In this document: positions 19,838 to 32,071 of the stretch, one piece after another
Numbering within the stretch: position 1 is the first letter of the stretch
Layout of the letters: every line of letters starts with the position of its first letter
DNA from: Candidatus Sulfobium sp.
GTDB lineage: Bacteria; Nitrospirota; Thermodesulfovibrionia; Thermodesulfovibrionales; UBA6898
Reading direction: 5' to 3'
DNA length: 64,000 bases
Assembly (NCBI GenBank): GCA_037380845.1
Contig: JARRRI010000035.1
Location: 1-64,000, forward strand
Program-made: the position numbers and the translations under genes
The notes under the pieces: generated by a model
Database searches by the model: none
The model's input: the letters and a program-made list of their open reading frames with translations, nothing else
What the model was told of the DNA's origin: nothing

Positions 19838-21130
19838 TTACTCGTTTTCTCTAAGAAGCGAATCGAGCGGACTCATGGGGACATTTTGCATATCTCTCAC
19901 AACATGCGTATAAATCATGGTTGTCTCGACGCTCTTATGGCCGAGAAGGCTTTGGACTTCCCTTATGTTGACTCCGCTCATGAGAAGATGGGTAGCAAAA
20001 CTGTGTCTGAGAGTGTGGACGGTCGCATGCTTGGCAATGCCGGCCTTTCTCAATGCATTCCCGAAGGCGGTCTGGATAGCCTTATCGCTGACATGGTGCC
20101 TCCTGACCTTTCCGCTTCTGGGATCAACGGAAAGCCGAGCGGAGGGGAAAACATACTGCCATTTCCATTCTTTGGCTGCATTGCGGTACTTTCTTTGGAG
20201 CGCGTCGGGCAGATACACCTCCCCGTGGCCTGCCGAAAGATCTTTCTCGTGAAGTGTCTTCACTTCTTGGAGATGGCTTTTGAGCGAATCCTTGATGGTC
20301 TCCGGAAGTATTGTAGTTCTGTCTTTATCTCCTTTTCCGCTTCGGACAACAATGAGACTTCCGTCGAAATCGACATCCAGGACCCTCAGTCGTGCTGCTT
20401 CCATTATTCGAAGACCTGAACCGTATAATATCCGGGCTATCAAAAGCGACGTTCCTGTCAGGTGGTCTAACAGCGTTCTTACCTCTTCAATCGAAAGAAC
20501 CACTGGAAGTTTGCTGCCCCTTTTGGCCCGGACGGTCGAGGAAAGGTCTCCCATATCCTGTTTGAGCACGTCGCGGAAGAGAAACAACAGGGCGTTGAAC
20601 GCCTGGTTTTGGGTGGAGGCTGAGACGCGTCTGGTTACGGCAAGATGGCTGAGGTAATCTCTGAGGACATCGGAAGTAAGGGCCGCGGATGAGTCCGATG
20701 AAATCTCGCGCATGTAAGCGAAGAACCGTCCCGCCCAGTCGAGGTAAGCTACCTCGGTGCGATAAGAATAATGCTTGATTCTGAGAAGTTTTCGCATCTC
20801 GGCAAGGAGTTCTGTCTTATCGGCAAGACTTCCTTTTGGTGTAAAAGCTTCCCCTTCGACCTTCATGATATCACCGCCCTTAAAGTGATGAATATAGAGA
20901 CGAAGGGCGGAGTCGGCCTGGATGACCTGCCAGTCCTCGATATCTCCCTTATCCCTCAGCATGTCGAGAAAACGGGCGACAGTCACGTTTATGTCTTCAT
21001 CCTCGTTGCCCCTCCGGAATACAAGAAACTTGCTGACCCAATTGGCCAGGAAAGAGACGTGCTTCTTCTGTGCAAGATTCCTGGCAACAAGAAATTCCTG
21101 AAACTCAGGCAGAATCTCCTTAAAGTTCAT
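19838..21130 (-). CDS. intI: Integron integrase with ~100-aa N-terminal extension
   Basis: YGSGLR, GKGDKDR, IntI-specific insert (DL..G.GEVYLPDAL.RKY..A..EW.WQYVFPS), HTLRHSFATHLL, LGH, TTMIYTHV; start at ATG 21130 after GGGGGA RBS. Confidence 0.97.
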   Translation of the reverse strand: MNFKEILPEFQEFLVARNLAQKKHVSFLANWVSKFLVFRRGNEDEDINVTVARFLDMLRDKGDIEDWQVIQADSALRLYIHHFKGGDIMKVEGEAFTPKGSLADKTELLAEMRKLLRIKHYSYRTEVAYLDWAGRFFAYMREISSDSSAALTSDVLRDYLSHLAVTRRVSASTQNQAFNALLFLFRDVLKQDMGDLSSTVRAKRGSKLPVVLSIEEVRTLLDHLTGTSLLIARILYGSGLRIMEAARLRVLDVDFDGSLIVVRSGKGDKDRTTILPETIKDSLKSHLQEVKTLHEKDLSAGHGEVYLPDALQRKYRNAAKEWKWQYVFPSARLSVDPRSGKVRRHHVSDKAIQTAFGNALRKAGIAKHATVHTLRHSFATHLLMSGVNIREVQSLLGHKSVETTMIYTHVVRDMQNVPMSPLDSLLRENE

Positions 21131-21831: not shown

Positions 21832-21919
21832 GGCTAACAAAAAAATCGAGGCGACAGGGAATAAGCTCGGCGGGTTTTCAAAGGCTGATTGCCTCTGCGC
21901 CTCATTTAGCTCGTTCTGC
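21832..21919 (+). other. attC site 1
   Basis: GGCTAAC...GTTCTGC imperfect palindrome, 88 bp. Confidence 0.85.
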
Positions 21920-21942
21920 ATAATAAGTTAGGGGAGAAATAG

Positions 21943-22905
21943 ATGATAATACTTGACGACAAGAAATTAATCGAGACGAAATTTATTAATGAGCAGGAAG
22001 TAGAAGACCTCGTAATTGCGAACTCGGAGCATTTCTTCGGCCCGTCATCAATTCTCGTTCCTAAAAAGAAAATTAGAACCAAAGACGGCTTCGGCACGAT
22101 ACCCGATGGCTTCGCAATAGATCTCTCAACTCGCGTTTGGTATGTTGTCGAGGCGGAGCTCTCTCACCACAATGTTTGGACTCACATAGCACCGCAGGTC
22201 ACGAAGCAGCTCTTAGCTGCGGGCCGCTTGGAAACCCGACAACTTCTCGCAGAAATATTAGTGCAAATGGTAACAGATGATCCAAGTACAAAAGAGAAAT
22301 TTGATGATGAAGGAATCAAGGAAATTGACATCAGAAAGGTGCTCGGCGAAATTCTTGAAAAAGCGCCCATTATTGGAATTCCGATTGATGCTGTTACAAA
22401 TGACCTTCGCGACTGGGCAGCTACTCTAAAGAATAATGTTAAACTGTGGATCGTCAAGAAATACATTCAGTTCGGGAATCTTAAGAGCATCGCTTACGAA
22501 ATACCGGAAGAATATCGCCCTGTGTTCGATACAACAGACAGAGAAGCTCAACCGCAATCCGGCATAAAAACATACGATGTTTCCATATCAGATCTTATCG
22601 AGGAAGGTTTGCTGACGGCAGGCGCAGAACTAACAATGACATACAAACCACGCGGCGGAAAACAACGGACCTTTACGGCCATACTTGAAGCCGACGGCTC
22701 TTTGAGCGTTTTAGATGAAAACTTTCCAAGCCCCTCCTACGCAGCCATATACTGCATACAGAAGGCTGGAAGCGACAGAACAACAGTAAATGGCTGGACA
22801 AGTTGGAAAACCCAAGACGGTAACTTTCTTGCACAGCTAAGATCAGACTACCTTGAAAAGAAAGAAAAGGCTGCAGAACAAGCAAATCAACCCGACGCAG
22901 ATTAA
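21943..22905 (+). CDS. Cassette 2: PD-(D/E)xK-like nuclease fused to a C-terminal RAMA-like domain
   Basis: E..E...IPDG...VVEAEL N-terminus; DLIEEGLL..G...ADG...FPSPS.AA...NGWTSW C-terminus. Confidence 0.7.
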   Translation: MIILDDKKLIETKFINEQEVEDLVIANSEHFFGPSSILVPKKKIRTKDGFGTIPDGFAIDLSTRVWYVVEAELSHHNVWTHIAPQVTKQLLAAGRLETRQLLAEILVQMVTDDPSTKEKFDDEGIKEIDIRKVLGEILEKAPIIGIPIDAVTNDLRDWAATLKNNVKLWIVKKYIQFGNLKSIAYEIPEEYRPVFDTTDREAQPQSGIKTYDVSISDLIEEGLLTAGAELTMTYKPRGGKQRTFTAILEADGSLSVLDENFPSPSYAAIYCIQKAGSDRTTVNGWTSWKTQDGNFLAQLRSDYLEKKEKAAEQANQPDAD

Positions 22906-22960
22906 CCTTGTCTGGTTTTCACAGGCCGCTTGCTTGCGCGGGTTATTTATTCAGTTAGGC
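22873..22960 (+). other. attC site 2
   Basis: GCAGAAC (complement of the upstream GTTCTGC)...GTTAGGC, 88 bp. Confidence 0.85.
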
Positions 22961-22971
22961 AAGGAATCTAA

Positions 22972-23328
22972 ATGAAGGCAGACAATTTCTATCGATTGAA
23001 AGTTCTTGCTGGCTTTATTTCATTCCTTTTTGCCGGCGGGTGGTTATTTTTTGCTGGCAAGTTGAACATTTGGTTGCATTTATATGCTTTTGCAATGATT
23101 TTTATCTTCTTAACCGCCGCACTCTTGCCGGATAGAGTTTATAGTTCGCGTTATCGTCCCATGATCGCGGCCATTTATATTTTTGGGGTATTTATAAGCG
23201 CTCCCGTCATTTATGATGGTATTATCCTGCTTCATGGCATTGACTATCTTGGTCTTTTCGTAGCGAACCTTCATTTAATCGTTCTGGCTTTTTTTATTAA
23301 GGCTTCATTAATAAAGGACAATGCCTAA
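22972..23328 (+). CDS. Cassette 3: small 4-TM membrane protein
   Basis: Four hydrophobic segments; stop overlaps attC GCCTAAC. Confidence 0.75.
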   Translation: MKADNFYRLKVLAGFISFLFAGGWLFFAGKLNIWLHLYAFAMIFIFLTAALLPDRVYSSRYRPMIAAIYIFGVFISAPVIYDGIILLHGIDYLGLFVANLHLIVLAFFIKASLIKDNA

Positions 23329-23410
23329 CAACCGGCTCGAACAGATGGCGCATAAGCTCGGCGGGTTTTGCAATGGTGGTTGCCGCCACTGGTCAGCCAA
23401 CTCGTTAGCT
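23323..23410 (+). other. attC site 3
   Basis: GCCTAAC...GTTAGCT, 88 bp. Confidence 0.88.
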
Positions 23411-23433
23411 GGCAATAAAATGAAGAAAATAAA

Positions 23434-23745
23434 ATGATTTGGCCAACTCAATTGTTGATCGCAACCCTCGCGTTGCTCATGTTATCAATTATTATCGGTT
23501 ATCCCGTCTGCCATGCCGTTCTCGGTCCAATTATACTTTCGAAACGCGGCAAGAGGAGACTTATTGAAAACTACTTATATTTCGGAAACATCATACAGAT
23601 GGAAAACGACATGAAAGAGCTATCGGAGCACAATGACAAGACCGCCCTCTTTGTTTACAGGCTAATAACCGTTTGCAAGTGGTCAATCATTATTAATCTG
23701 ATTCTAGTGATTGCATTTGCCGTCATTAGTGCGACACAGTCATAG
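23434..23745 (+). CDS. Cassette 4: two-TM hypothetical protein
   Basis: ORF fills the cassette; hydrophobic termini. Confidence 0.7.
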   Translation: MIWPTQLLIATLALLMLSIIIGYPVCHAVLGPIILSKRGKRRLIENYLYFGNIIQMENDMKELSEHNDKTALFVYRLITVCKWSIIINLILVIAFAVISATQS

Positions 23746-23773
23746 ATGACAAATAAGGCAAGGGAAAAGATAC

Positions 23774-23866
23774 AGCTAACAACTGGCTCGACGGCCGACC
23801 GGGATTAAAGCTGGTTTGATTTTTGGCAAAGGTGGGTGCCCCGGCGGGTCAGCCGTATCGTTAGCT
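23774..23866 (+). other. attC site 4
   Basis: AGCTAAC...GTTAGCT, 93 bp. Confidence 0.88.
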
Positions 23867-23879
23867 GTGAGGAGAAAAA

Positions 23880-24398
23880 ATGATGCTAGAGTCTATATTG
23901 TTGGGAGTAACCGGAAGTCTTGTTGCATCAATATTATTCTTAATTTTCGCCTCATTGTTTCGCCCGAACCTCACCCTCTCAAAAAATATATCCGTTGGCG
24001 AATATGATGGTAAGCAAATATTTTCTGTCAAAGTGGCCAACTGTGGTTGCCGCTCTGCAATAAACATCAGGGTAGAATTGCAAATTATTGGTACAAGAGT
24101 TGTTGAAGGTGGAAAAGGAAAAAAGATATACGATGTGGAATTATTAAAAAATGACCATCTAATTTTGAAACCATATAGCAAAAACAATCCAATCAACTGT
24201 TCATTTGAATTTTCTACGGTTGCCAATCTTCCCGAAGAATGGAAAAAAATCGAAGAATCAAATTTATTGTTTAGAGTTATAGCTCAGGACTCTTTCACTT
24301 CTTTTTGCAAAGTTTTTGAGCAAGAATACTACTCACCAGCATCAGCTATAAAACAAGGCCGTTTCGGTTTTGGTAAAAATTTAACAATATACAGCTAA
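23880..24398 (+). CDS. Cassette 5: hypothetical protein with N-terminal TM and beta-rich domain
   Basis: GAGGAG RBS; stop overlaps AGCTAAC. Confidence 0.75.
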   Translation: MMLESILLGVTGSLVASILFLIFASLFRPNLTLSKNISVGEYDGKQIFSVKVANCGCRSAINIRVELQIIGTRVVEGGKGKKIYDVELLKNDHLILKPYSKNNPINCSFEFSTVANLPEEWKKIEESNLLFRVIAQDSFTSFCKVFEQEYYSPASAIKQGRFGFGKNLTIYS

Positions 24399-24504
24399 CC
24401 AGTCACTAAACCGGACCGTCCACCCGTCGTGGTTCTTGCCCAGGTTTCCATGTCGCTTGCTTTTGGACATGGCACAGCCCGGGCCGGTTAGCTCTACGTT
24501 ATAG
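24393..24504 (+). other. attC site 5
   Basis: AGCTAAC..CTAAACCGG...CCGGTTAG..GTTATAG, 112 bp. Confidence 0.88.
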
Positions 24505-24551
24505 CAAAAATACATTAAAGACGAATTAAATCCAATCATCGGAGGTTTACC

Positions 24552-24734
24552 ATGAATCAAGATGCGAAGCAGATGCGCGAATTTTGCCAAAAGTGGCTTA
24601 TAGATTCTCGGAAAAGAGAAGTCAATGATCCACAGCTTACAAAGAATATCCTCGCGATAATGAATGAAATGCATAAGCGCCTTACGATACTAGAAGGCGC
24701 AACTCTTCAGTCGCTCGAAGACATATCAGCTTAA
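24552..24734 (+). CDS. Cassette 6 ORF a, hypothetical
   Basis: GGAGG RBS, 60 aa. Confidence 0.5.
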   Translation: MNQDAKQMREFCQKWLIDSRKREVNDPQLTKNILAIMNEMHKRLTILEGATLQSLEDISA

Positions 24735-24939
24735 TGTCATTTTGTTTCTCGAAATACTTAGAAAGAGACATCTTCTGTAATATCTCTTTCAACGGTTCGA
24801 GTGGTTCTTCGAGCAGAAAGTACCACCTTGCCCCAAATGCGGATGTAAGAATCGCTGCGTCTCCGGGGTTCACATTATGTTTTGAGAGTATGTCAGTAAA
24901 CTCCTTGAAAAGCATCTCTGTTGCTTCTTCTTGTCTCAT
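24682..24939 (-). CDS. Cassette 6 ORF b (antisense), hypothetical
   Basis: AAGGAG RBS on the minus strand, 85 aa. Confidence 0.55.
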   Translation of the reverse strand: MRQEEATEMLFKEFTDILSKHNVNPGDAAILTSAFGARWYFLLEEPLEPLKEILQKMSLSKYFEKQNDIKLICLRATEELRLLVS

Positions 24940-24984
24940 GACTATGTTCTCCTTTCAAAAGAAACTTTATATAACGGAGGGTTT

Positions 24985-25341
24985 ATGGGACGCTGGTCAA
25001 CAAAATCAGATTTTGAAGAAAAGTTAAAGGACTTTATCGGAAAGGATATCGAATATTTTGAGGTCGCTCCAGCTCCCGATTGTTGCTCTGAATGTGAGGC
25101 AAGAGCAAACAAAAAGATAAAAGTCAGAACGGCAACAAAAGCCGATATTCCTCCATTCCATGAAGAATGTAGATGCGACATCCTGCCTTTATTTGAAGAC
25201 GAGGAGGCCGGTTGGTTAAAACAACATAAATCTAAATACGACACAGGCGAATTTCCCATGAAAAGGTGTCCTCACTGTAAAGAGTGGATTCCGGGCAATG
25301 CCACGCAATGCAATAAACCAAAATGCGGAAAAGAGCTATAA
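24985..25341 (+). CDS. Cassette 6 ORF c: Cys-rich protein with MuF/minor-head-like motif and zinc ribbon
   Basis: GGAGG RBS; CCSEC...PPFHEECRC; KRCPHC..I...A..C...CG. Confidence 0.65.
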   Translation: MGRWSTKSDFEEKLKDFIGKDIEYFEVAPAPDCCSECEARANKKIKVRTATKADIPPFHEECRCDILPLFEDEEAGWLKQHKSKYDTGEFPMKRCPHCKEWIPGNATQCNKPKCGKEL

Positions 25342-25463
25342 CAAGCGGCTCCACACCGACACGGGTTAAGCGCGCCCTGGTTTTTGCTTGTTCTGTTGTC
25401 TCTCTTCCGCTCAATCCTTATCTCCTGTCTTTTGGCCCGTGCGGGTGAGCCTGGTCGTTAGGC
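25336..25463 (+). other. attC site 6
   Basis: CTATAAC (complement of GTTATAG)...GTTAGGC, 128 bp. Confidence 0.88.
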
Positions 25464-25550: not shown

Positions 25551-25826
25551 ATGAATCTAGCGAATGGATCATTAATCGCACTCATCATAATGTTCTTGGC
25601 CTATTATCTTCATCAAAGCCCCAAACAAACCGAACTGAAAAACGAGAATGCGGAACTCAAGAAAACTATTATTCAACTTGAAACGGAAAATGCTGAACTT
25701 AAGACGAAGAATGCGAAACTTCAAAAGATAATTCTCGAACTTCAAAAAAAGATATCCAAAAAACGAAGAATTATCTCTAGTGGCATAGTCCATAATTTTC
25801 ATGATCCTGACCTCGATAAAATTTAA
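25551..25826 (+). CDS. Cassette 7: TM plus coiled-coil protein
   Basis: GAGGTG RBS; repeated ENAELK heptads. Confidence 0.7.
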   Translation: MNLANGSLIALIIMFLAYYLHQSPKQTELKNENAELKKTIIQLETENAELKTKNAKLQKIILELQKKISKKRRIISSGIVHNFHDPDLDKI

Positions 25827-25868
25827 ACAAATTAATAACCAGAGGAAATAACGAAATGCGCCGGGAGC

Positions 25869-25925
25869 GCCTAACGGGGCCGGATAGAACGGCAGTGCCG
25901 AGTAAAAGATATAGAGTTTCTCAAT
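25869..25925 (+). other. Left half of attC 7, interrupted
   Basis: GGGAGCGCCTAAC is the exact complement of the cassette start GTTAGGCGCTCCC; no right arm before the transposase element. Confidence 0.7.
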
Positions 25926-26841
25926 GGGGTCAGGTCTTGTTTCTTGCAGACAGGTATGAGATGTAGTAATGTGGTTGTATGGCAAGGCCTCTGAGAATTG
26001 AATACGACGGTGCACTTTACCATGTTACTTCCCGGGGGAATGAGAGGAAGCGGATCTTTCGGGACGACGAAGACCGTGCTGCATTTCTTGATACCCTTCT
26101 CAAGGTAAACGAACGGTATAACTGGATGTGCCATGCATACTGTCTCATGAATAACCATTACCACTTGATCATTGAAACACCGGACGGAAATCTTTCACAG
26201 GGAATGAGGCAACTCAATGGAGTGTATACCCAGTTGTTCAACAGAAGGCACCATCGTGTCGGACATTTATTCCAGGGCAGGTTCAAGACGATTCTCATAG
26301 AGAAGGAGGGTTATCTCCTGGAAGTAAGCAGGTATGTTGTGTTGAATCCGGTCAGGGCGAAAGCGGTGGAGCGGCCGGAGCACTGGAAGTGGAGCAGCTA
26401 TCGGGGCACGGGCCGGCATGGGAAAGCGGCATAAGTGCCTCACACGGGATTGGATATTGGGCCAATTCGGAATGAAACGAGGAGAGGCGCAAAAGAGGTA
26501 CAGGGAGTTTGTCTCAGCCGGCATGAGAGGAGGGGAAGGGCTGTGGAAGGAAGTGAGAGGCCAAAGCATCTTGGGGGACAGCCTCTTTTTTGAGAAGGTG
26601 CTCATCCACGTGAAAGCGCACGAAAACATAGAGGAGATACCGAGGCGGCAGCGGTATGTGGGTAGACCGGGATTGTCGGAGATACTTACCGAGAGGAAGA
26701 TAAGAGGAAAGGAGATAAGGGCAGCGGTCCTGGAGCATGGATACAGTCAGAAAGAGGTGGCTGAATTTCTCGGCGTGCATTACTCCACTATCAGCAGAAA
26801 GGTGAATCAAACCATTGATGCAAGAAGAAAGACCTGACCCC
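25926..26841 (+). mobile_element. Y1/HUH (RAYT-like) transposase element with 23-bp inverted ends
   Basis: GGGGTCAGGTCTTGTTTCTTGCA (25926-25948) and TGCAAGAAGAAAGACCTGACCCC (26819-26841); flanked by AAT on both sides. Confidence 0.85.
25979..26837 (+). pseudogene. Y1 HUH transposase with C-terminal HTH, frameshifted near 26410
   Basis: YHVTSRGN, MNNHYHL (HUH), GHLFQGRF, YVVLNPVRA, WSSY; HTH SQKEVAEFLGVHYSTISR in the second frame; one extra G in ACGGGCC explains the shift. Confidence 0.85.
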
Positions 26842-26844
26842 AAT

Positions 26845-26877
26845 ATGGCGTTTCGCTGCTGATGCACCTCGTTCTGT
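26845..26877 (+). other. Probable right half of an attC (R' GTTCTGT)
   Basis: GCTGATGCACCTCGTTCTGT directly before an RBS and the next ORF. Confidence 0.55.
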
Positions 26878-26906: not shown

Positions 26907-27199
26907 ATGATTAAGAAAATCGCAATCGCGGTCGCCGTCCTGACGCTCTTAATATCTTCGCTTGCACTCGCGGGAGATAACAAAACAACTCCAGCTGAAG
27001 AACAGGCAAAAATCCAACAGAGCATGCAAATGATGACGCCGATGTTCGGATTCTTGCGGATCCGGAGACGGCAAATAAAGTGGCCGCTTTCACGAAGAAT
27101 TACTATGATGCGCTTGTCAAACAGGGTTTTACTAAAGAAGATGCACTAAAAATCACCATGTCTGCGGGCATTCCTAAACTGGCGGGCATGCAAAAATAA
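26907..27199 (+). pseudogene. Cassette 8: secreted helical protein, frameshifted near 27050
   Basis: Signal peptide; protein-like text LADPETANKVAAFTKNYYDALVKQGFTKEDAL continues in another frame. Confidence 0.65.
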
Positions 27200-27814: not shown

Positions 27815-27888
27815 ACCTAACAACTGCATAAACCCGGACTGGCATTCCGCTGCGCTGCATTGCCGGCCGGGTATGCGGAGCGTTAGAT
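27815..27888 (+). other. attC site
   Basis: ACCTAAC..GCATAAACCCGG...CCGGGTATGC..GTTAGAT, 74 bp. Confidence 0.88.
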
Positions 27889-28117: not shown

Positions 28118-28190
28118 ATCTAACAACTCCATTGAGGCCGACGCGGATTAACGCTGGCACCTTTTCAAGCCGGCCTTCTTGCCGGCGCGA
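28118..28190 (+). other. Truncated attC (right arm missing)
   Basis: ATCTAAC complements GTTAGAT; no GTT end found. Confidence 0.6.
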
Positions 28191-28519: not shown

Positions 28520-30919
28520 ATGGACTGCAGAGAAATGTATAAAGTTCGTAAAGATTGTTGTGTTTTATGTTTCGTCAAGTGGTTGAGGCCCATGAATTGG
28601 AGGTCTGCGATTATGAGTTGGCGAAATATTGTTTCTCGAGTGCAGGATTCCGTCCCGCAACGGGCGGCCGTTGTGTCGCTGGCATTTGTTTGCCTGATCG
28701 CTTGGGCGGCAAGCGCCGATGCGGCTGGTCTCACAAGAACGCTTGGTGGGATCGTCAAAGGCGCCGGCGGTGCGCAGACTGGGTACGACGTATCCCTCTA
28801 CGCTGCCTTCCCCGGCGGGCCTTTCAATGAACTCCTGGGCAACGACACCACTGACGGCGGGGGCAGCTTCGAGATTAAGTACCGGCCTCTGCCCGAGGGT
28901 CACACGAAACCGGTCCTCTACGTTCTCGCAGAAAAAGGCAAGGCGATGCTGGCCGGTGCGGTCGGTGGCCTGTCGAAGCACGATCATGTCGTCGTCAACG
29001 AACTGACCACGGTGGCGATGGGGACGGCGTTCGCACAATTCATCGATGGTCGCGACATCAGCGGCAACACCTATGGCATGCTCAATGCGGTCGGGATGGC
29101 CGCAAACATGGCAAATCCGAAGACCGGCGCAATCGGCGAGGTCCTGGACAACGGTCCCAACGGCAGCGAAACCTCGACGCGCAAGACGTTCTACTCTATG
29201 GCCAACATCCTTGCGGCTTGCGTCGACAACCCCGTCAATTGCGACGATCTATTCGACTATGCAACGCCGATCGGCGGGCCAGCACCGGCAACTGTGCTGC
29301 AAGCCCTGGCGAACATGACCAGGTATCCTTCGGGACGAACGATCTCCAATGCCGACGGTTTGTTCGGCCTCTCTTTGGAAGACCAGGTTTACGGCCCGGC
29401 GCTATCGTCAAACCCCTCGTCGTGGCTGCTGTTCATCAAGTTTACCGGCGTTATCGGCGATCGCGCCGGCCAATACAGCTCTGACAATCTGTTCAGCGGG
29501 CCCGGCCAGATCGGATTCGACGAGCGCGGTTTTGCCTGGATCAACGATAACTACACACCCTCCGACTTTGACCCTAGAAATCCCCTCGATTTGATCGGTG
29601 ACCCTACCATGGAGCAAATCGGGTGTGCCGGTCTGCGGCTGCTCAAATTTTATCCGTCGGGCAAGCCCTTCCCGGGCGTACCGTATTTCGGCGGCGGCCT
29701 GAGCGGAGCCGGCTTCGGCATTGCCCTCGACCCGCGCGGCAAGGTCTGGGTGGGGAATTTCGGCTTTGAATCGCCGCTTTGCACCGTCCCGCCTTTTCCG
29801 CCTGACTCGGAAAAAATCCCCGCAACCCATGACAGCATCTCCTTGTTCCTCCCCAACGGCACGCCGATCTCCGTCCCCGACGGCTTCACCAATGGCCACA
29901 TCTGGTGGCCGCAGGGCATGGCCGCCGACAAGGCGGGCGATATCTGGGTTGGAAACTGCGGCAATGACACGGTGACGCTGATCCCGCGCGGCATACCCTC
30001 GCAGGCCCGGAATTTCCCGCTCCCCGGCGGACTGGTGGATAAAGGGGGGCCCTATGACCCGCCGATGCTGATGTACAGGTTCAGTACTCCCAGGCCGCTC
30101 ATCAAGCCTTTCGGTCTTGCGCTCGATCCCAAGGGGCGCGCCTGGGTAGTCGGGAATGCCATCGGGTTTAAACAAAGCACGACACCCACAATATACTACA
30201 CCGGCGGCCTCTACCGGATCTCGAAAGATGGGTCGATCGTCACGATAGCGCTGCCCGGGGACCAGCTCTTGACCTTCCCGATGGGCATCGCCGGCGACAG
30301 CAGGGGAAATATGTGGGTAACGAACTCGGATCACGTGAGCGTTCCCTGCGTGACCCCGTTCTCGACGGATCAAGGCGGTGGATTCGGACCGTCGCTGGTC
30401 TATTTCCCGGCGGATAGCAGTGATGCAAGCGGGGCTCGGGTGTTCGGCACAGAGCCTGACAATACGGGCGGGCTCACCATCCCGTGGGGCGATTTTGTCG
30501 ATGGAAACGACACGGTCTGGGTGTTCAATTTCGGCGTCGATCCGAACGATTCTTCATCGCACACCACGCCGCTTTCGCAGTTCTGCGGCGCAGGCAAATG
30601 TCCGGCAGGCTTGAAGCTGGGCGATGCGATCTCTCCTCCAACTGGGTATTTGTCCGATGCCCTAGACCGGGTTACCGGCGGCGGCGTCGATCCGTCGGGC
30701 AACATCTGGATTCTCAACAACTGGAAGAAGCTCGCTCCCCTAAAGGTCGGCGGCGACAATCCACCCCCTTATCCGTCCGATTATCCGGTTTTCGAGCGAA
30801 ATCCCGGCGGCAACTCGTTCGTCATTGTCCCGGGTGCAGCTGCTCCCATCAAGACACCCTTGCTCGGACCGCCGGAATCCTTTGACAACAGCAAACACCC
30901 CTCCCCCGGGAGCCGGTAA
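28520..30919 (+). CDS. Large secreted NHL/beta-propeller repeat protein (true start probably ~28612)
   Basis: Signal peptide, repeated G(I/L)A.D..G..WV.N motifs; GC-rich relative to the cassettes. Confidence 0.8.
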   Translation: MDCREMYKVRKDCCVLCFVKWLRPMNWRSAIMSWRNIVSRVQDSVPQRAAVVSLAFVCLIAWAASADAAGLTRTLGGIVKGAGGAQTGYDVSLYAAFPGGPFNELLGNDTTDGGGSFEIKYRPLPEGHTKPVLYVLAEKGKAMLAGAVGGLSKHDHVVVNELTTVAMGTAFAQFIDGRDISGNTYGMLNAVGMAANMANPKTGAIGEVLDNGPNGSETSTRKTFYSMANILAACVDNPVNCDDLFDYATPIGGPAPATVLQALANMTRYPSGRTISNADGLFGLSLEDQVYGPALSSNPSSWLLFIKFTGVIGDRAGQYSSDNLFSGPGQIGFDERGFAWINDNYTPSDFDPRNPLDLIGDPTMEQIGCAGLRLLKFYPSGKPFPGVPYFGGGLSGAGFGIALDPRGKVWVGNFGFESPLCTVPPFPPDSEKIPATHDSISLFLPNGTPISVPDGFTNGHIWWPQGMAADKAGDIWVGNCGNDTVTLIPRGIPSQARNFPLPGGLVDKGGPYDPPMLMYRFSTPRPLIKPFGLALDPKGRAWVVGNAIGFKQSTTPTIYYTGGLYRISKDGSIVTIALPGDQLLTFPMGIAGDSRGNMWVTNSDHVSVPCVTPFSTDQGGGFGPSLVYFPADSSDASGARVFGTEPDNTGGLTIPWGDFVDGNDTVWVFNFGVDPNDSSSHTTPLSQFCGAGKCPAGLKLGDAISPPTGYLSDALDRVTGGGVDPSGNIWILNNWKKLAPLKVGGDNPPPYPSDYPVFERNPGGNSFVIVPGAAAPIKTPLLGPPESFDNSKHPSPGSR

Positions 30920-30970
30920 CGTGAAGGCTTCGCAGGCGAACCGCGCCCCGCTGTCGAGCTGGGCCTCCGA

Positions 30971-31011
30971 GGGGTCAGAAAATATAAATGGGTCACATAA
31001 TGGGTGACCCC
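30971..31011. repeat. 41-bp mini-element bounded by GGGGTCA...TGACCCC
   Basis: Same terminal motif as the Y1 element; internal GGGTCAC/GTGACCC palindrome. Confidence 0.55.
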
Positions 31012-31062
31012 ATAGACGATCCTCGCCACCCTGCGTCCGGTTCGCTCAACTCGCCGTTCGGC
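31012..31062 (+). other. Right half of an attC (R' GTTCGGC)
   Basis: GTTCGGCGTTT matches, with one mismatch, the complement of AAACGCCTAAC ending the next cassette. Confidence 0.7.
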
Positions 31063-31077
31063 GTTTAGGAGCATCAT

Positions 31078-31728
31078 ATGACCGCTCAAGAACTCGTAAT
31101 TGAGCCGCCGATTAAGGGGCATTGGACAATCTACAACCCCCCGGGCCACCCTCACCTTGCGTTTGATTTTCTTGCAGTAGATGACCACAAGTCTCTTTAC
31201 AGCAAAGGCAATTTCCTGAGGCATCTGGTTTCATTTATTCAGGTCGAGGATACACACACGTGGTCACGTCCCGTATTCTCCCCAGTTGACGGAGTTGTTG
31301 TCGAAAGCCACGGTACTGAAAATGACTGCAAGAGGATATCGTTTATCTACGATCTGTTCTCTCTCCTCATCAATAAACCAAAAGTGGCTGACGGCTTTGG
31401 GGCATTTGGCGGGAACCACGTAATGATTCGAGCGGAAGATATTTTTGTGTTGCTTTGTCACTTGCGGCAGGGATCATTGCAGGTAGGCAAAGGCGATGTC
31501 GTGAAGGTGGGCCGGAAAATTGGGGAAGTTGGGAACTCAGGATCATCAATTCAACCGCACCTGCACCTTCAGGTTATGAGTAATGATCAATACTTTCCTC
31601 TCTTTGTCAACTTACTGCCTTTCAAATTCAACAGAGGCAAGATAAAACAAGGTGGCGGTTGGGAAACAAAGCAGAACTTCGAGCTAAAGAACAGGGCGCA
31701 TTATCTGTTTGAAAGTGAAAACGCCTAA
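31078..31728 (+). CDS. Cassette: M23-family metallopeptidase
   Basis: GNHV.I..HL..GS..V..G..IGEVGNSGSS..PHLH. Confidence 0.85.
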   Translation: MTAQELVIEPPIKGHWTIYNPPGHPHLAFDFLAVDDHKSLYSKGNFLRHLVSFIQVEDTHTWSRPVFSPVDGVVVESHGTENDCKRISFIYDLFSLLINKPKVADGFGAFGGNHVMIRAEDIFVLLCHLRQGSLQVGKGDVVKVGRKIGEVGNSGSSIQPHLHLQVMSNDQYFPLFVNLLPFKFNRGKIKQGGGWETKQNFELKNRAHYLFESENA

Positions 31729-31803
31729 CAACGCGTTCAACTCCGACTCGCAAAAGCGGCGCTTCACCCCCCTTTTGCCAGCAGGTTAACACGAACGTTA
31801 GGC
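31723..31803 (+). other. attC site
   Basis: GCCTAAC...GTTAGGC, 81 bp. Confidence 0.88.
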
Positions 31804-31835: not shown

Positions 31836-32071
31836 GTGAAGCGAACTAACCAAATGGCCGGTTTTCTTACTCTACTGTTGGCGGGCTTTCTGTCCGTTAC
31901 CATTGTTGCGCCAGTTGCGCGTGCCAAAGACGCAACGCTGGAAAAACCGGCTGAGAGTATAACGTCTCTACTCCAACAGATGGTCGGTACGTGGGATGTC
32001 CAGCAGCGCATGTGGCCAGGCCCCGATGCTCATGCAATCAATCTTCCGGCGGCTGAGCTTCATCGTTATGC
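31836..32071 (+). pseudogene. Truncated cassette (secreted protein N-terminus) fused to an attC right arm
   Basis: Signal peptide and MVGTWDV then GCGGCTGAGCTTCATCGTTATGC with no left arm. Confidence 0.6.

Follow-up and report, generated by a model that had tools for sequence, protein, structure and literature searches.

The subject of this analysis is a 916-bp element in a cassette array of Candidatus Sulfobium sp. (Nitrospirota), located in a 64,000-nucleotide (nt) stretch of contig JARRRI010000035.1 that is called the window throughout. Judged from its sequence, the element is a TIRtron, a known kind of unit of about 0.93 kb in which one gene for a TIR-associated tyrosine transposase (TIRYT; a Y1/HUH domain plus a helix-turn-helix, HTH) lies between conserved terminal inverted repeats (TIRs). 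Taking the evidence as a whole, we consider it probable that an inactivated TIRtron sits in this array between flanks that are non-cognate to each other, and that it comes from a mobile family which favours integron arrays and moves by a single-strand mechanism. The preliminary description, made from the letters of the window, had proposed a Y1/HUH element that was inserted inside a single attC site, attC7, and that targets such sites; what it observed proved largely real, and its interpretation partly right.

The element and its known relatives

Counted from GGGG to CCCC, the element occupies 25926-26841 (916 bp), and its inverted ends (25925-25948 and 26819-26842, 24 nt) match at 22/24 positions, which is 92% complementarity. 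Both tips carry GGGGTCAG, and the 13-nt TIR core GGGGTCAGGTCTT has exactly two occurrences in the window, both at the element ends. AAT flanks the element on both sides, as had been described, and the inner T and A of these AAT also lengthen the inverted repeat.

The transposase gene is split into two open reading frames (ORFs). ORF1 matched PF01797 (50.9 bits, cut-off 23) and NF047646, "REP-associated tyrosine transposase" (94.3 bits, cut-off 80), and its HYH motif and the Tyr of RYVVLNP sit in nearly invariant alignment columns. The HTH matches of ORF2 were to HTH_3 (26 bits) and HTH_38 (25 bits, under the cut-off); with the HTH set of Quentin et al. (2018), HTH_23 reached 21.3 bits, also under the cut-off, and Bac_DnaA_C gave no match. 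When aligned with intact homologues of 281-292 amino acids (aa), ORF1 diverges after YRGT and ORF2 picks up a few residues further on (approximately residues 207-285), corresponding to a +1 frame change. Logan contigs of four public marsh-metagenome runs bridge both junctions and are free of indels throughout the element, the frame change included; this assembly therefore did not create the frameshift or the junctions. The copy in the window is predicted to be disabled by the +1 frame change and to be an ordinary inactivated member of its family. Searches for solved structures, with the single protein and with a profile, gave no sequence-level match. The inverted ends, the profile matches to PF01797 and NF047646, and the integrase gene intI with eight attC sites bear out the identification of a TIR-bounded Y1/HUH element in an integron array.

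In the available text of Di Nocera et al. (2013), such units are named TIRtrons and their enzymes TIRYTs, and the TIRs share GGGGWSAS (PMC3733652). In that of Quentin et al. (2018), 20/26 described TIRYTs fall in TnpA-Y1 subclass 2.1 with C-terminal HTH domains, the C-terminal extension of this subclass being Bac_DnaA_C, HTH_23 or HTH_28 (PMC6006769). The present element agrees with these accounts in its single Y1/HUH transposase gene, its TIRs in place of REP hairpins, the fit of GGGGTCAG to GGGGWSAS, the C-terminal HTH and a right TIR that overlaps the 3′ end of the gene. The element type is thus not new, TIRtrons and TIRYTs with GGGGWSAS ends being already in print; in the text available from both papers, their mobility and targets are left open (PMC3733652, PMC6006769). 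Unlike in those published accounts as far as they were available, the family here is characterised by recent transposition, absence of target-site duplication, stutters at the ends, and enrichment and co-orientation in arrays, and the copy in the window is frameshifted.

Two better-known groups share part of these features. Like IS200/IS605 elements (IS608, ISDra2), TIRtrons have a Y1 HUH transposase with PF01797, lack a target-site duplication (71 loci) and have boundaries a few nt off the recognised end structures; a single-strand, strand-specific mechanism is probably shared as well. IS200/IS605 elements have subterminal hairpins and no inverted ends, and insert beside a fixed 4-5-nt target. 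TIRtrons differ in having TIRs of 20-24 nt that do not fold on themselves, an added HTH and variable flanks; the ends of the present element are mutually inverted, so that pairing is between distant arms and no self-hairpin forms at the tips. To REPtrons with their RAYT (TnpA-REP) genes, the likeness is in the name of the nearest protein family (NF047646), a gene bracketed by an inverted short repeat, and the presence of solo and clustered repeats. Unlike in REPtrons, REP hairpins of the GTAG type are absent and the source genome lacks a large REP/REPIN population, and in comparison with them, relatives of the element hold several diverged or near-identical copies per genome.

The flanks of the element and the cassette array

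The array is that of a chromosomal integron, with an IntI-type integrase gene beside attC sites that all lie in one orientation; intI, on the minus strand, faces the plus-strand cassettes. A covariance model (R1) was built from seven attC sites, all of the window's own array. Over the 64-kb window it returned eight attC sites, consisting of the seven training sites and the untrained site 22873-22960 (46 bits), with all else at noise level. The attCs on either side of the TIRtron are those at 25336-25463 and 27815-27888. The site that would be rejoined by removing the element was assessed by truncated-mode searches with a control, by hidden Markov models (HMMs) of the two arms, and by folding.

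On the right, a 3′-arm HMM trained on 22 attCs gave 7.0 bits at 26854-26875 (7.5-18 bits for true sites of the array), and the arm closely resembles the 3′ arms of attCs from other genomes. A truncated covariance-model search is powerless on right halves, since the control half was negative too. The right flank, which ends in GTTCTGT at 26871-26877 as reported, is, by an HMM score in the low range of true sites and by these likenesses, probably a genuine attC 3′ arm.

The left flank gave a different result. GCCTAAC is indeed present at 25869, and attC7 had been said to begin normally there. This heptamer is not rarer than chance (7 matches versus 5.2 expected), and it begins 43 nt past the stop codon, when the R'' of other cassettes overlaps the stop codon or lies within 28 nt of it (0-28). 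In truncated mode, R1 found no match in the left 57 nt (searched 25780-25924), when the left 57 nt of the untrained second attC (22873-22960) scored 23.6 bits, and the 5′-arm HMM gave no match on the left flank; the normal beginning of attC7 was therefore not upheld. Removal of the element leaves 91-93 nt, close to the 90 bp that had been estimated. The imperfect pairing of the arms was also noted correctly: the flank-flank duplex (-10.6 kcal/mol) is at the 20th percentile of non-cognate flank pairs, and the fold of the rejoined site has -9.8 kcal/mol, a less stable value than any of the eight scored attCs of the array gives (-10.2 to -16.0). In addition, a contig of run X8 has the sequence from 26854 onward preceded by a different upstream sequence, reading like a canonical attC interior. 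Because the left-arm tests failed, the flanks do not pair and the right arm has an alternative partner in X8, the flanks look non-cognate, and most likely they are not the halves of one attC. Thus, of the claim that the element was inserted inside a single attC, the part concerning the right flank probably stands and the part concerning the left does not, and the flanks appear to be of the kind that the preliminary description itself had named as speaking against it. No recombinable attC remains between the two neighbouring cassettes, which are hence fused. In the most likely history, the TIRtron would have come into the array within or beside an attC, and an adjacent deletion or rearrangement would then have taken the rest of that site.

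An empty allele was found neither for the window's copy nor for any other copy, in relatives or in metagenome contigs. Among 53 genomes of the family, nothing matched the cassette flank to the left of the element; the right arm, sought as an exact string in the metagenome contigs, turned up 0 times; and none of the contigs of the four runs skips the element (such contigs show presence, not absence). For the near-identical copies of genome G063 described below, the search with their flanks in their genus gave one-sided homology only.

A different account of the junction is that the element targets attC in its folded single-strand form and was inserted in the central loop of attC7, the poor match of the arms being due to decay or to an atypical attC. 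The left 57 nt, which fail the attC model when the control half passes, the flank pairing, which is no better than chance, and the other canonical partner of the right arm in the community contig all argue against this, whereas the enzymology fits, since it is established that HUH enzymes work on single-stranded DNA and that attC folds in single-stranded form (see also PMC8266576). It is also favoured by a second TIR-bounded insert, a mini element of 41 nt in the unpaired centre of an attC-like hairpin, whose start is 57 nt from the start of the R''-like heptamer, the same spacing as from 25869 to 25926. In this hairpin (30912-31062), the ends pair as R''-like and R'-like sequences together with an 8-bp L''/L' pair, and the fold without the insert has -19.5 kcal/mol. 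Neither R1 nor the arm HMMs recognised the hairpin, so that its attC status is assigned solely by structure.

The features of the array and the element are listed in Table 1. The 91-aa cassette upstream of the element had no homologue in the 53 genomes of the family. The product of the second cassette (21943-22902) is 320 aa long and includes a RAMA domain (PF18755, 71.8 bits), which is tied to restriction/methylase systems. Two half attCs have no TIR near them, a 5′ arm at 28118-28181 (also placed at 28120-28148; 10.9 bits with the arm HMM and 9.9 bits with the covariance model) and a 3′ arm at 32046-32070 (13.2 bits). The cassette array of the window appears to be decaying. At position 27050, contigs of all four metagenome runs have 36 nt more than the window; therefore, the window's small ORF at 26907-27149 probably stems from a local assembly deletion or a minority variant. 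A crude attC finder that combined a regular expression with folding missed nearly all true sites and was dropped.

Table 1. Positions of the integron, the TIRtron and the associated sites within the window
Feature	Position	Strand	Description
Integron integrase gene intI	19841-21130	-	TIGR02249, 412.2 bits (cut-off 265); also PF00589 and PF13495
Array part upstream of the element	21832-25463	+	Six attCs: 21832-21919, 22873-22960, 23323-23410, 23774-23866, 24393-24493, 25336-25463; R1 46-82 bits
Cassette ORF upstream of the element	25551-25826	+	91 aa, coiled-coil-like
Left flank	25869-25925	+	Heptamer GCCTAAC resembling R'', then 50 nt; attC 5′ arm weak or absent
Left TIR	25926-25948	+	Tip GGGGTCAG, fits GGGGWSAS
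TIRYT ORF1	25979-26434	+	Y1/HUH catalytic domain; HYH motif, catalytic Tyr in RYVVLNP; premature stop after +1 frame change
TIRYT ORF2	26418-26837	+	C-terminal region with HTH; stop codon within the right TIR
Right TIR	26819-26841	+	
Tail of about 11 nt after the right TIR	26842-26853	+	Appears to move with the element
Truncated attC 3′ arm (L'-R')	26854-26877	+	Ends in GTTCTGT at 26871-26877; found with the 3′-arm HMM
First complete attC downstream of the element	27815-27888	+	R1 51.4 bits
attC-like imperfect hairpin	30912-31062	+	After a 799-aa ORF; mini TIR element in the central loop
Mini element	30971-31011	+	41 nt, bounded by GGGGTCAG and TGACCCC
Final complete attC detected in the array	31723-31803	+	R1 62.7 bits

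Mobility and end behaviour of TIRtrons

The family is large. A homologue search gave at least 8000 matches at E ≤ 0.001, and the best 120 of these at least 8000 were 66-89% identical, many of them on contigs of about 1 kb; among the matches listed, the nearest named homologues come from metagenome-assembled genomes of Nitrospirota/Thermodesulfovibrionia. A TIRYT match (E ≤ 1e-40) is present in 175/390 genomes of the window's class. For the comparisons below we used a set of 91 loci, consisting of the window (L001) and 30 plus 60 homologous loci, and the TIR core is kept at 16/20 positions or more in 73/91 of them.

In genome G063, three copies with 99.25-99.36% identity along 933 nt each have an unrelated context, the sequence shared outside the TIRs amounting to just 6 nt at the left end and 3-4 nt at the right. 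In the community of the window, the right end of the element up to 26852 is also found on contigs of runs X8 and X10, where another flank follows, and one X8 contig has the left end from 25926 behind yet another flank. Since the flanks on these contigs differ, the mobile unit extends from 25926 to approximately 26852 and includes the 11-nt tail, and a second copy of the element is concluded to be present in the source community. Tails related to that of the window occur at L003, L025 and L077. Because of the three near-identical copies in G063 and the other flanks on near-identical ends in X8, the TIRtron family is judged to be mobile, with recent transposition.

This movement makes no target-site duplication. 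In 71 loci, the longest word shared by the two flanks averaged 4.97 nt for cognate and 4.89 nt for non-cognate flanks. A duplication offset by the tail was considered and is found at L022 and L093 only, not as a general feature. What is frequent at the ends is a different mark, which we call a stutter, a tandem duplication of 6-20 nt that covers the outermost TIR bases and the flank beside them. Stutters were found at 27/71 right ends and 15/71 left ends, so that 36/71 loci have one at either end, compared with 10/710 control segments (p = 3e-33). The window's own copy has no stutter duplications at its ends. Extreme cases with long runs of tip plus flank are seen at the right of L084 (six GACCCC-ATGACC-like units), at the right of L075 and at both flanks of L080. 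General insertion into hairpin loops was also considered and rejected, because cognate flanks were not significantly more complementary (p = 0.069, 71 loci) and the top cases were extra TIR copies or terminators.

The source genome contains one full element, a 56-nt relic of a right end (contig C5), an end-like sequence (C81), the mini element and a paralogue on contig C22. The relic is at C5:25806-25861, and 14 nt of it (the tip and 7 nt of flank) recur at the right of the mini element, at 31005-31018 of the window; this sharing suggests that a short tail moves along with the end. The paralogue (C22:84880-85990, minus strand) is an intact second TIRYT, approximately 40% identical over 131 aa, with its own ends GGGGACGTTGTT and AACAACGTCCCC, and a solo TGACCCC tip about 3.4 kb away adjoins a duplicated gene start. 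It was considered as an attC neighbour, since an attC-like CTATAAC...GTTAGGA lies just upstream, but was rejected as the surrounding 7 kb contains ordinary genes and no array, with no attC-model match reported.

Several further observations concern single ends and damaged copies. At L112:2773, L113:641 (minus strand) and L123:4810 (genus g83), cassettes that are otherwise unrelated have a solo TIR at their start, and a conserved module of about 130 nt comes after it. The module could be a promoter or leader derived from TIRtron decay, or a non-autonomous element; a search of Rfam gave no family match in six loci, these modules included. At L064 (G166:C21), 77 nt downstream of an attC, the TIR tips are mutated, with both the G-run and the C-run lost, and this copy is probably immobilised. 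In G063, an unrelated repeat of about 760 nt (L086:4080-4840), which has at least six copies of 99-100% identity, adjoins one TIRtron copy and is probably another insertion sequence.

TIRtrons and integron arrays

We determined how often homologous copies lie near an attC, in 89/90 loci (L030 omitted). An R1 match of at least 30 bits was present within 1.5 kb at 5/29 loci (filters off; L002 and L030 left out for size) and within 2 kb at 4/60 loci (default filters), that is, for 9/89 copies within 1.5-2 kb. The baseline, 175 attC matches in 31 genomes (88.5 Mb), implies that the 2-kb surroundings of attCs make up at most 0.8% of the sequence; against this, the excess is significant (p = 5e-8; p = 3e-4 at threefold baseline). 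An independent count with the TIR-core pattern in 11 genomes gave 157 matches, versus 31 for the reversed control pattern. Among 150 of the 157, 12/150 lie within 1 kb of a listed attC and 18/150 within 2 kb, distances that cover at most 0.68% and at most 1.33% of the genomes. Conversely, array segments chosen by their attC matches alone (94,014 nt) contain 7 TIR cores versus 0.24 expected. The orientation is fixed as well, because 24/24 attC matches at 16/16 loci point the same way as the transposase gene (p = 3e-5 for 16/16); the window and array segments L110 and L117 show this orientation too. On this evidence TIRtrons are approximately ten-fold enriched in integron arrays and co-oriented with the cassettes, and would favour arrays without being specific for attC.

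Mere neighbourhood by chance would be another alternative, in which ordinary insertions accumulate in dispensable DNA, arrays gather any mobile element and neither attC nor single strands play a part. The rve transposase domain, which is also over-represented near attC in the same 31 genomes (2/74, 2.7%, within 2 kb versus at most 0.8%), fits this idea, as do array segment L125 with its three rve matches and the TIR-free half attCs of the window's array. Tolerance of this kind does not lead one to expect the orientation bias at 16/16 loci, nor two TIR-bounded inserts in one array of 10.7 kb, and in array segments TIR elements outnumber rve (5/20 versus 1/20). We therefore regard chance neighbourhood as very improbable. 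As rve is somewhat over-represented and TIRtrons more so, arrays seem to attract mobile DNA generally, and TIRtrons to a higher degree.

The co-orientation could also arise if TIRtrons were cargo, captured as or within a gene cassette and moved between positions in arrays by IntI, since 16/16 is how cassette genes behave. Seven loci (L027, L064, L084, L112, L113, L117, L123) have the element 28-189 nt downstream of an attC, as cargo should be, and L032 and L012 have complete attC-like sites 35 and 93 nt past the right end (weak, 12.5 and 13.2 bits). However, no locus examined has attCs at cassette-like spacing on both sides, the two-sided cases having a gap of 365-852 nt on at least one side; most copies are outside arrays, and the near-identical G063 copies lie in ordinary contexts. 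Transport as a cassette is accordingly a rather improbable origin of the association.

Direct targeting of attC draws support from the enrichment and the strict co-orientation, and from three homologous loci that adjoin parts of an attC, which together with the window make four cases of an element directly against a truncated site. At L031 the 5′ arm is missing, and a 27.7-bit match to the 3′ two-thirds of an attC starts 5 nt past the right TIR; at L077 the 5′ arm is present and the 3′ arm missing; at L110 an internally deleted copy of 330 bp occupies the place expected for the R' box. The position, however, varies: elements are found past L'', in the centre, ahead of L', at R' or at a distance of 28-850 nt. 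Besides the seven loci named above, further elements lie 35-852 nt upstream of an attC; most array copies are 28-852 nt from their attC, and there is no reproducible position of insertion. In addition, approximately 90% of copies have no attC within 1.5-2 kb, and the flanks of the 71 loci are not hairpin-like (p = 0.07). Targeting of attC as such is therefore unlikely, and of that earlier proposal we retain the affinity for arrays (9/89; 18/150) and the co-orientation.

Elements that do target attC show the difference. The IS1111-attC group, with a DEDD transposase and a guide RNA, and the group IIC-attC introns, which are retro-homing ribozymes, have a defined position in attC according to the available text of PMC11187229 and PMC7923331. 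TIRtrons resemble them in lying inside arrays, in their fixed orientation relative to attC and in being able to inactivate it. Differences are the variable position, the location of most copies outside arrays and the HUH enzyme. In the parts of the literature reached by our search, a link between TIRtrons and integrons, attC truncation beside the elements and stutters at the ends were not found in print.

For the favoured reading, an inactivated member of an array-favouring mobile family between non-cognate flanks, we propose the following mechanism. The enzyme would sit on the conserved 13-nt TIR core by means of its HTH and, with its HUH/Tyr centre, nick one strand at the boundary of the G-run. 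A single strand would then move into a single-stranded target, which would explain both the lack of a duplication and the strand preference seen as fixed orientation. Repeated nicking, short repair synthesis of a few nt and resealing may produce the stutters, that is, the duplications of tip plus flank, and aberrant or one-ended events may cause adjacent deletions, visible in arrays as one-sided truncations of attC. Arrays would be favoured as dispensable DNA rich in extruded single-stranded hairpins, rather than for attC as a specific target, and the fixed orientation could reflect that both partners are polarised relative to replication.

A number of points weigh against this reading. As the searches gave no empty site, both the course of the insertion and the deletion proposed above are reconstructions. 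The alternative contig at 26854 could come from another strain or organism with a similar attC, and a divergent 5′ arm could escape R1, which was trained on seven sites of this array only. TIR-free half attCs are found in the same array (28120-28148 and 32046-32070), and truncation need not be the element's doing. The attC baseline may be too low, as its prefilter scored 127 of several hundred candidates per genome. The excess over rve is modest (Fisher p = 0.056 versus 9/89 and p = 0.018 versus 5/29), so that part of the signal may be the tolerance of arrays for any mobile DNA. Finally, the nick site, the strand and the origin of the stutters are a proposal drawn from sequence.

A bolder version, which we put forward only tentatively and consider doubtful as yet, sees TIRtrons as active HUH transposons that move as single strands and truly prefer arrays in a strand-specific way, drawn there by extruded attC hairpins or nearby single-stranded DNA. 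Their tips would be nicked and copied, leaving stutters and deletions that truncate attCs, fuse cassettes and seed the solo TIR modules, and the family would then be a hitherto unrecognised force that remodels and "freezes" chromosomal integrons.

In the available text of the published work, TIRYT and TIRtron elements have been catalogued, with neither movement nor targets described. The present analysis adds sequence evidence of recent transposition, and a diagnostic signature of the ends, with stutters and no target-site duplication, that constrains the chemistry. It also shows, for one bacterial class, an association with integron arrays that is approximately ten-fold and strictly co-oriented, and several truncated attC sites that directly adjoin elements. 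With one small gene and ends of 24 nt, TIRtrons are a tractable system for an HUH enzyme that works with an HTH on inverted-repeat ends. If the association with arrays is causal, TIRtrons would be a new kind of element that interrupts attC and fuses cassettes, limiting the shuffling of cassettes in sedentary chromosomal integrons.

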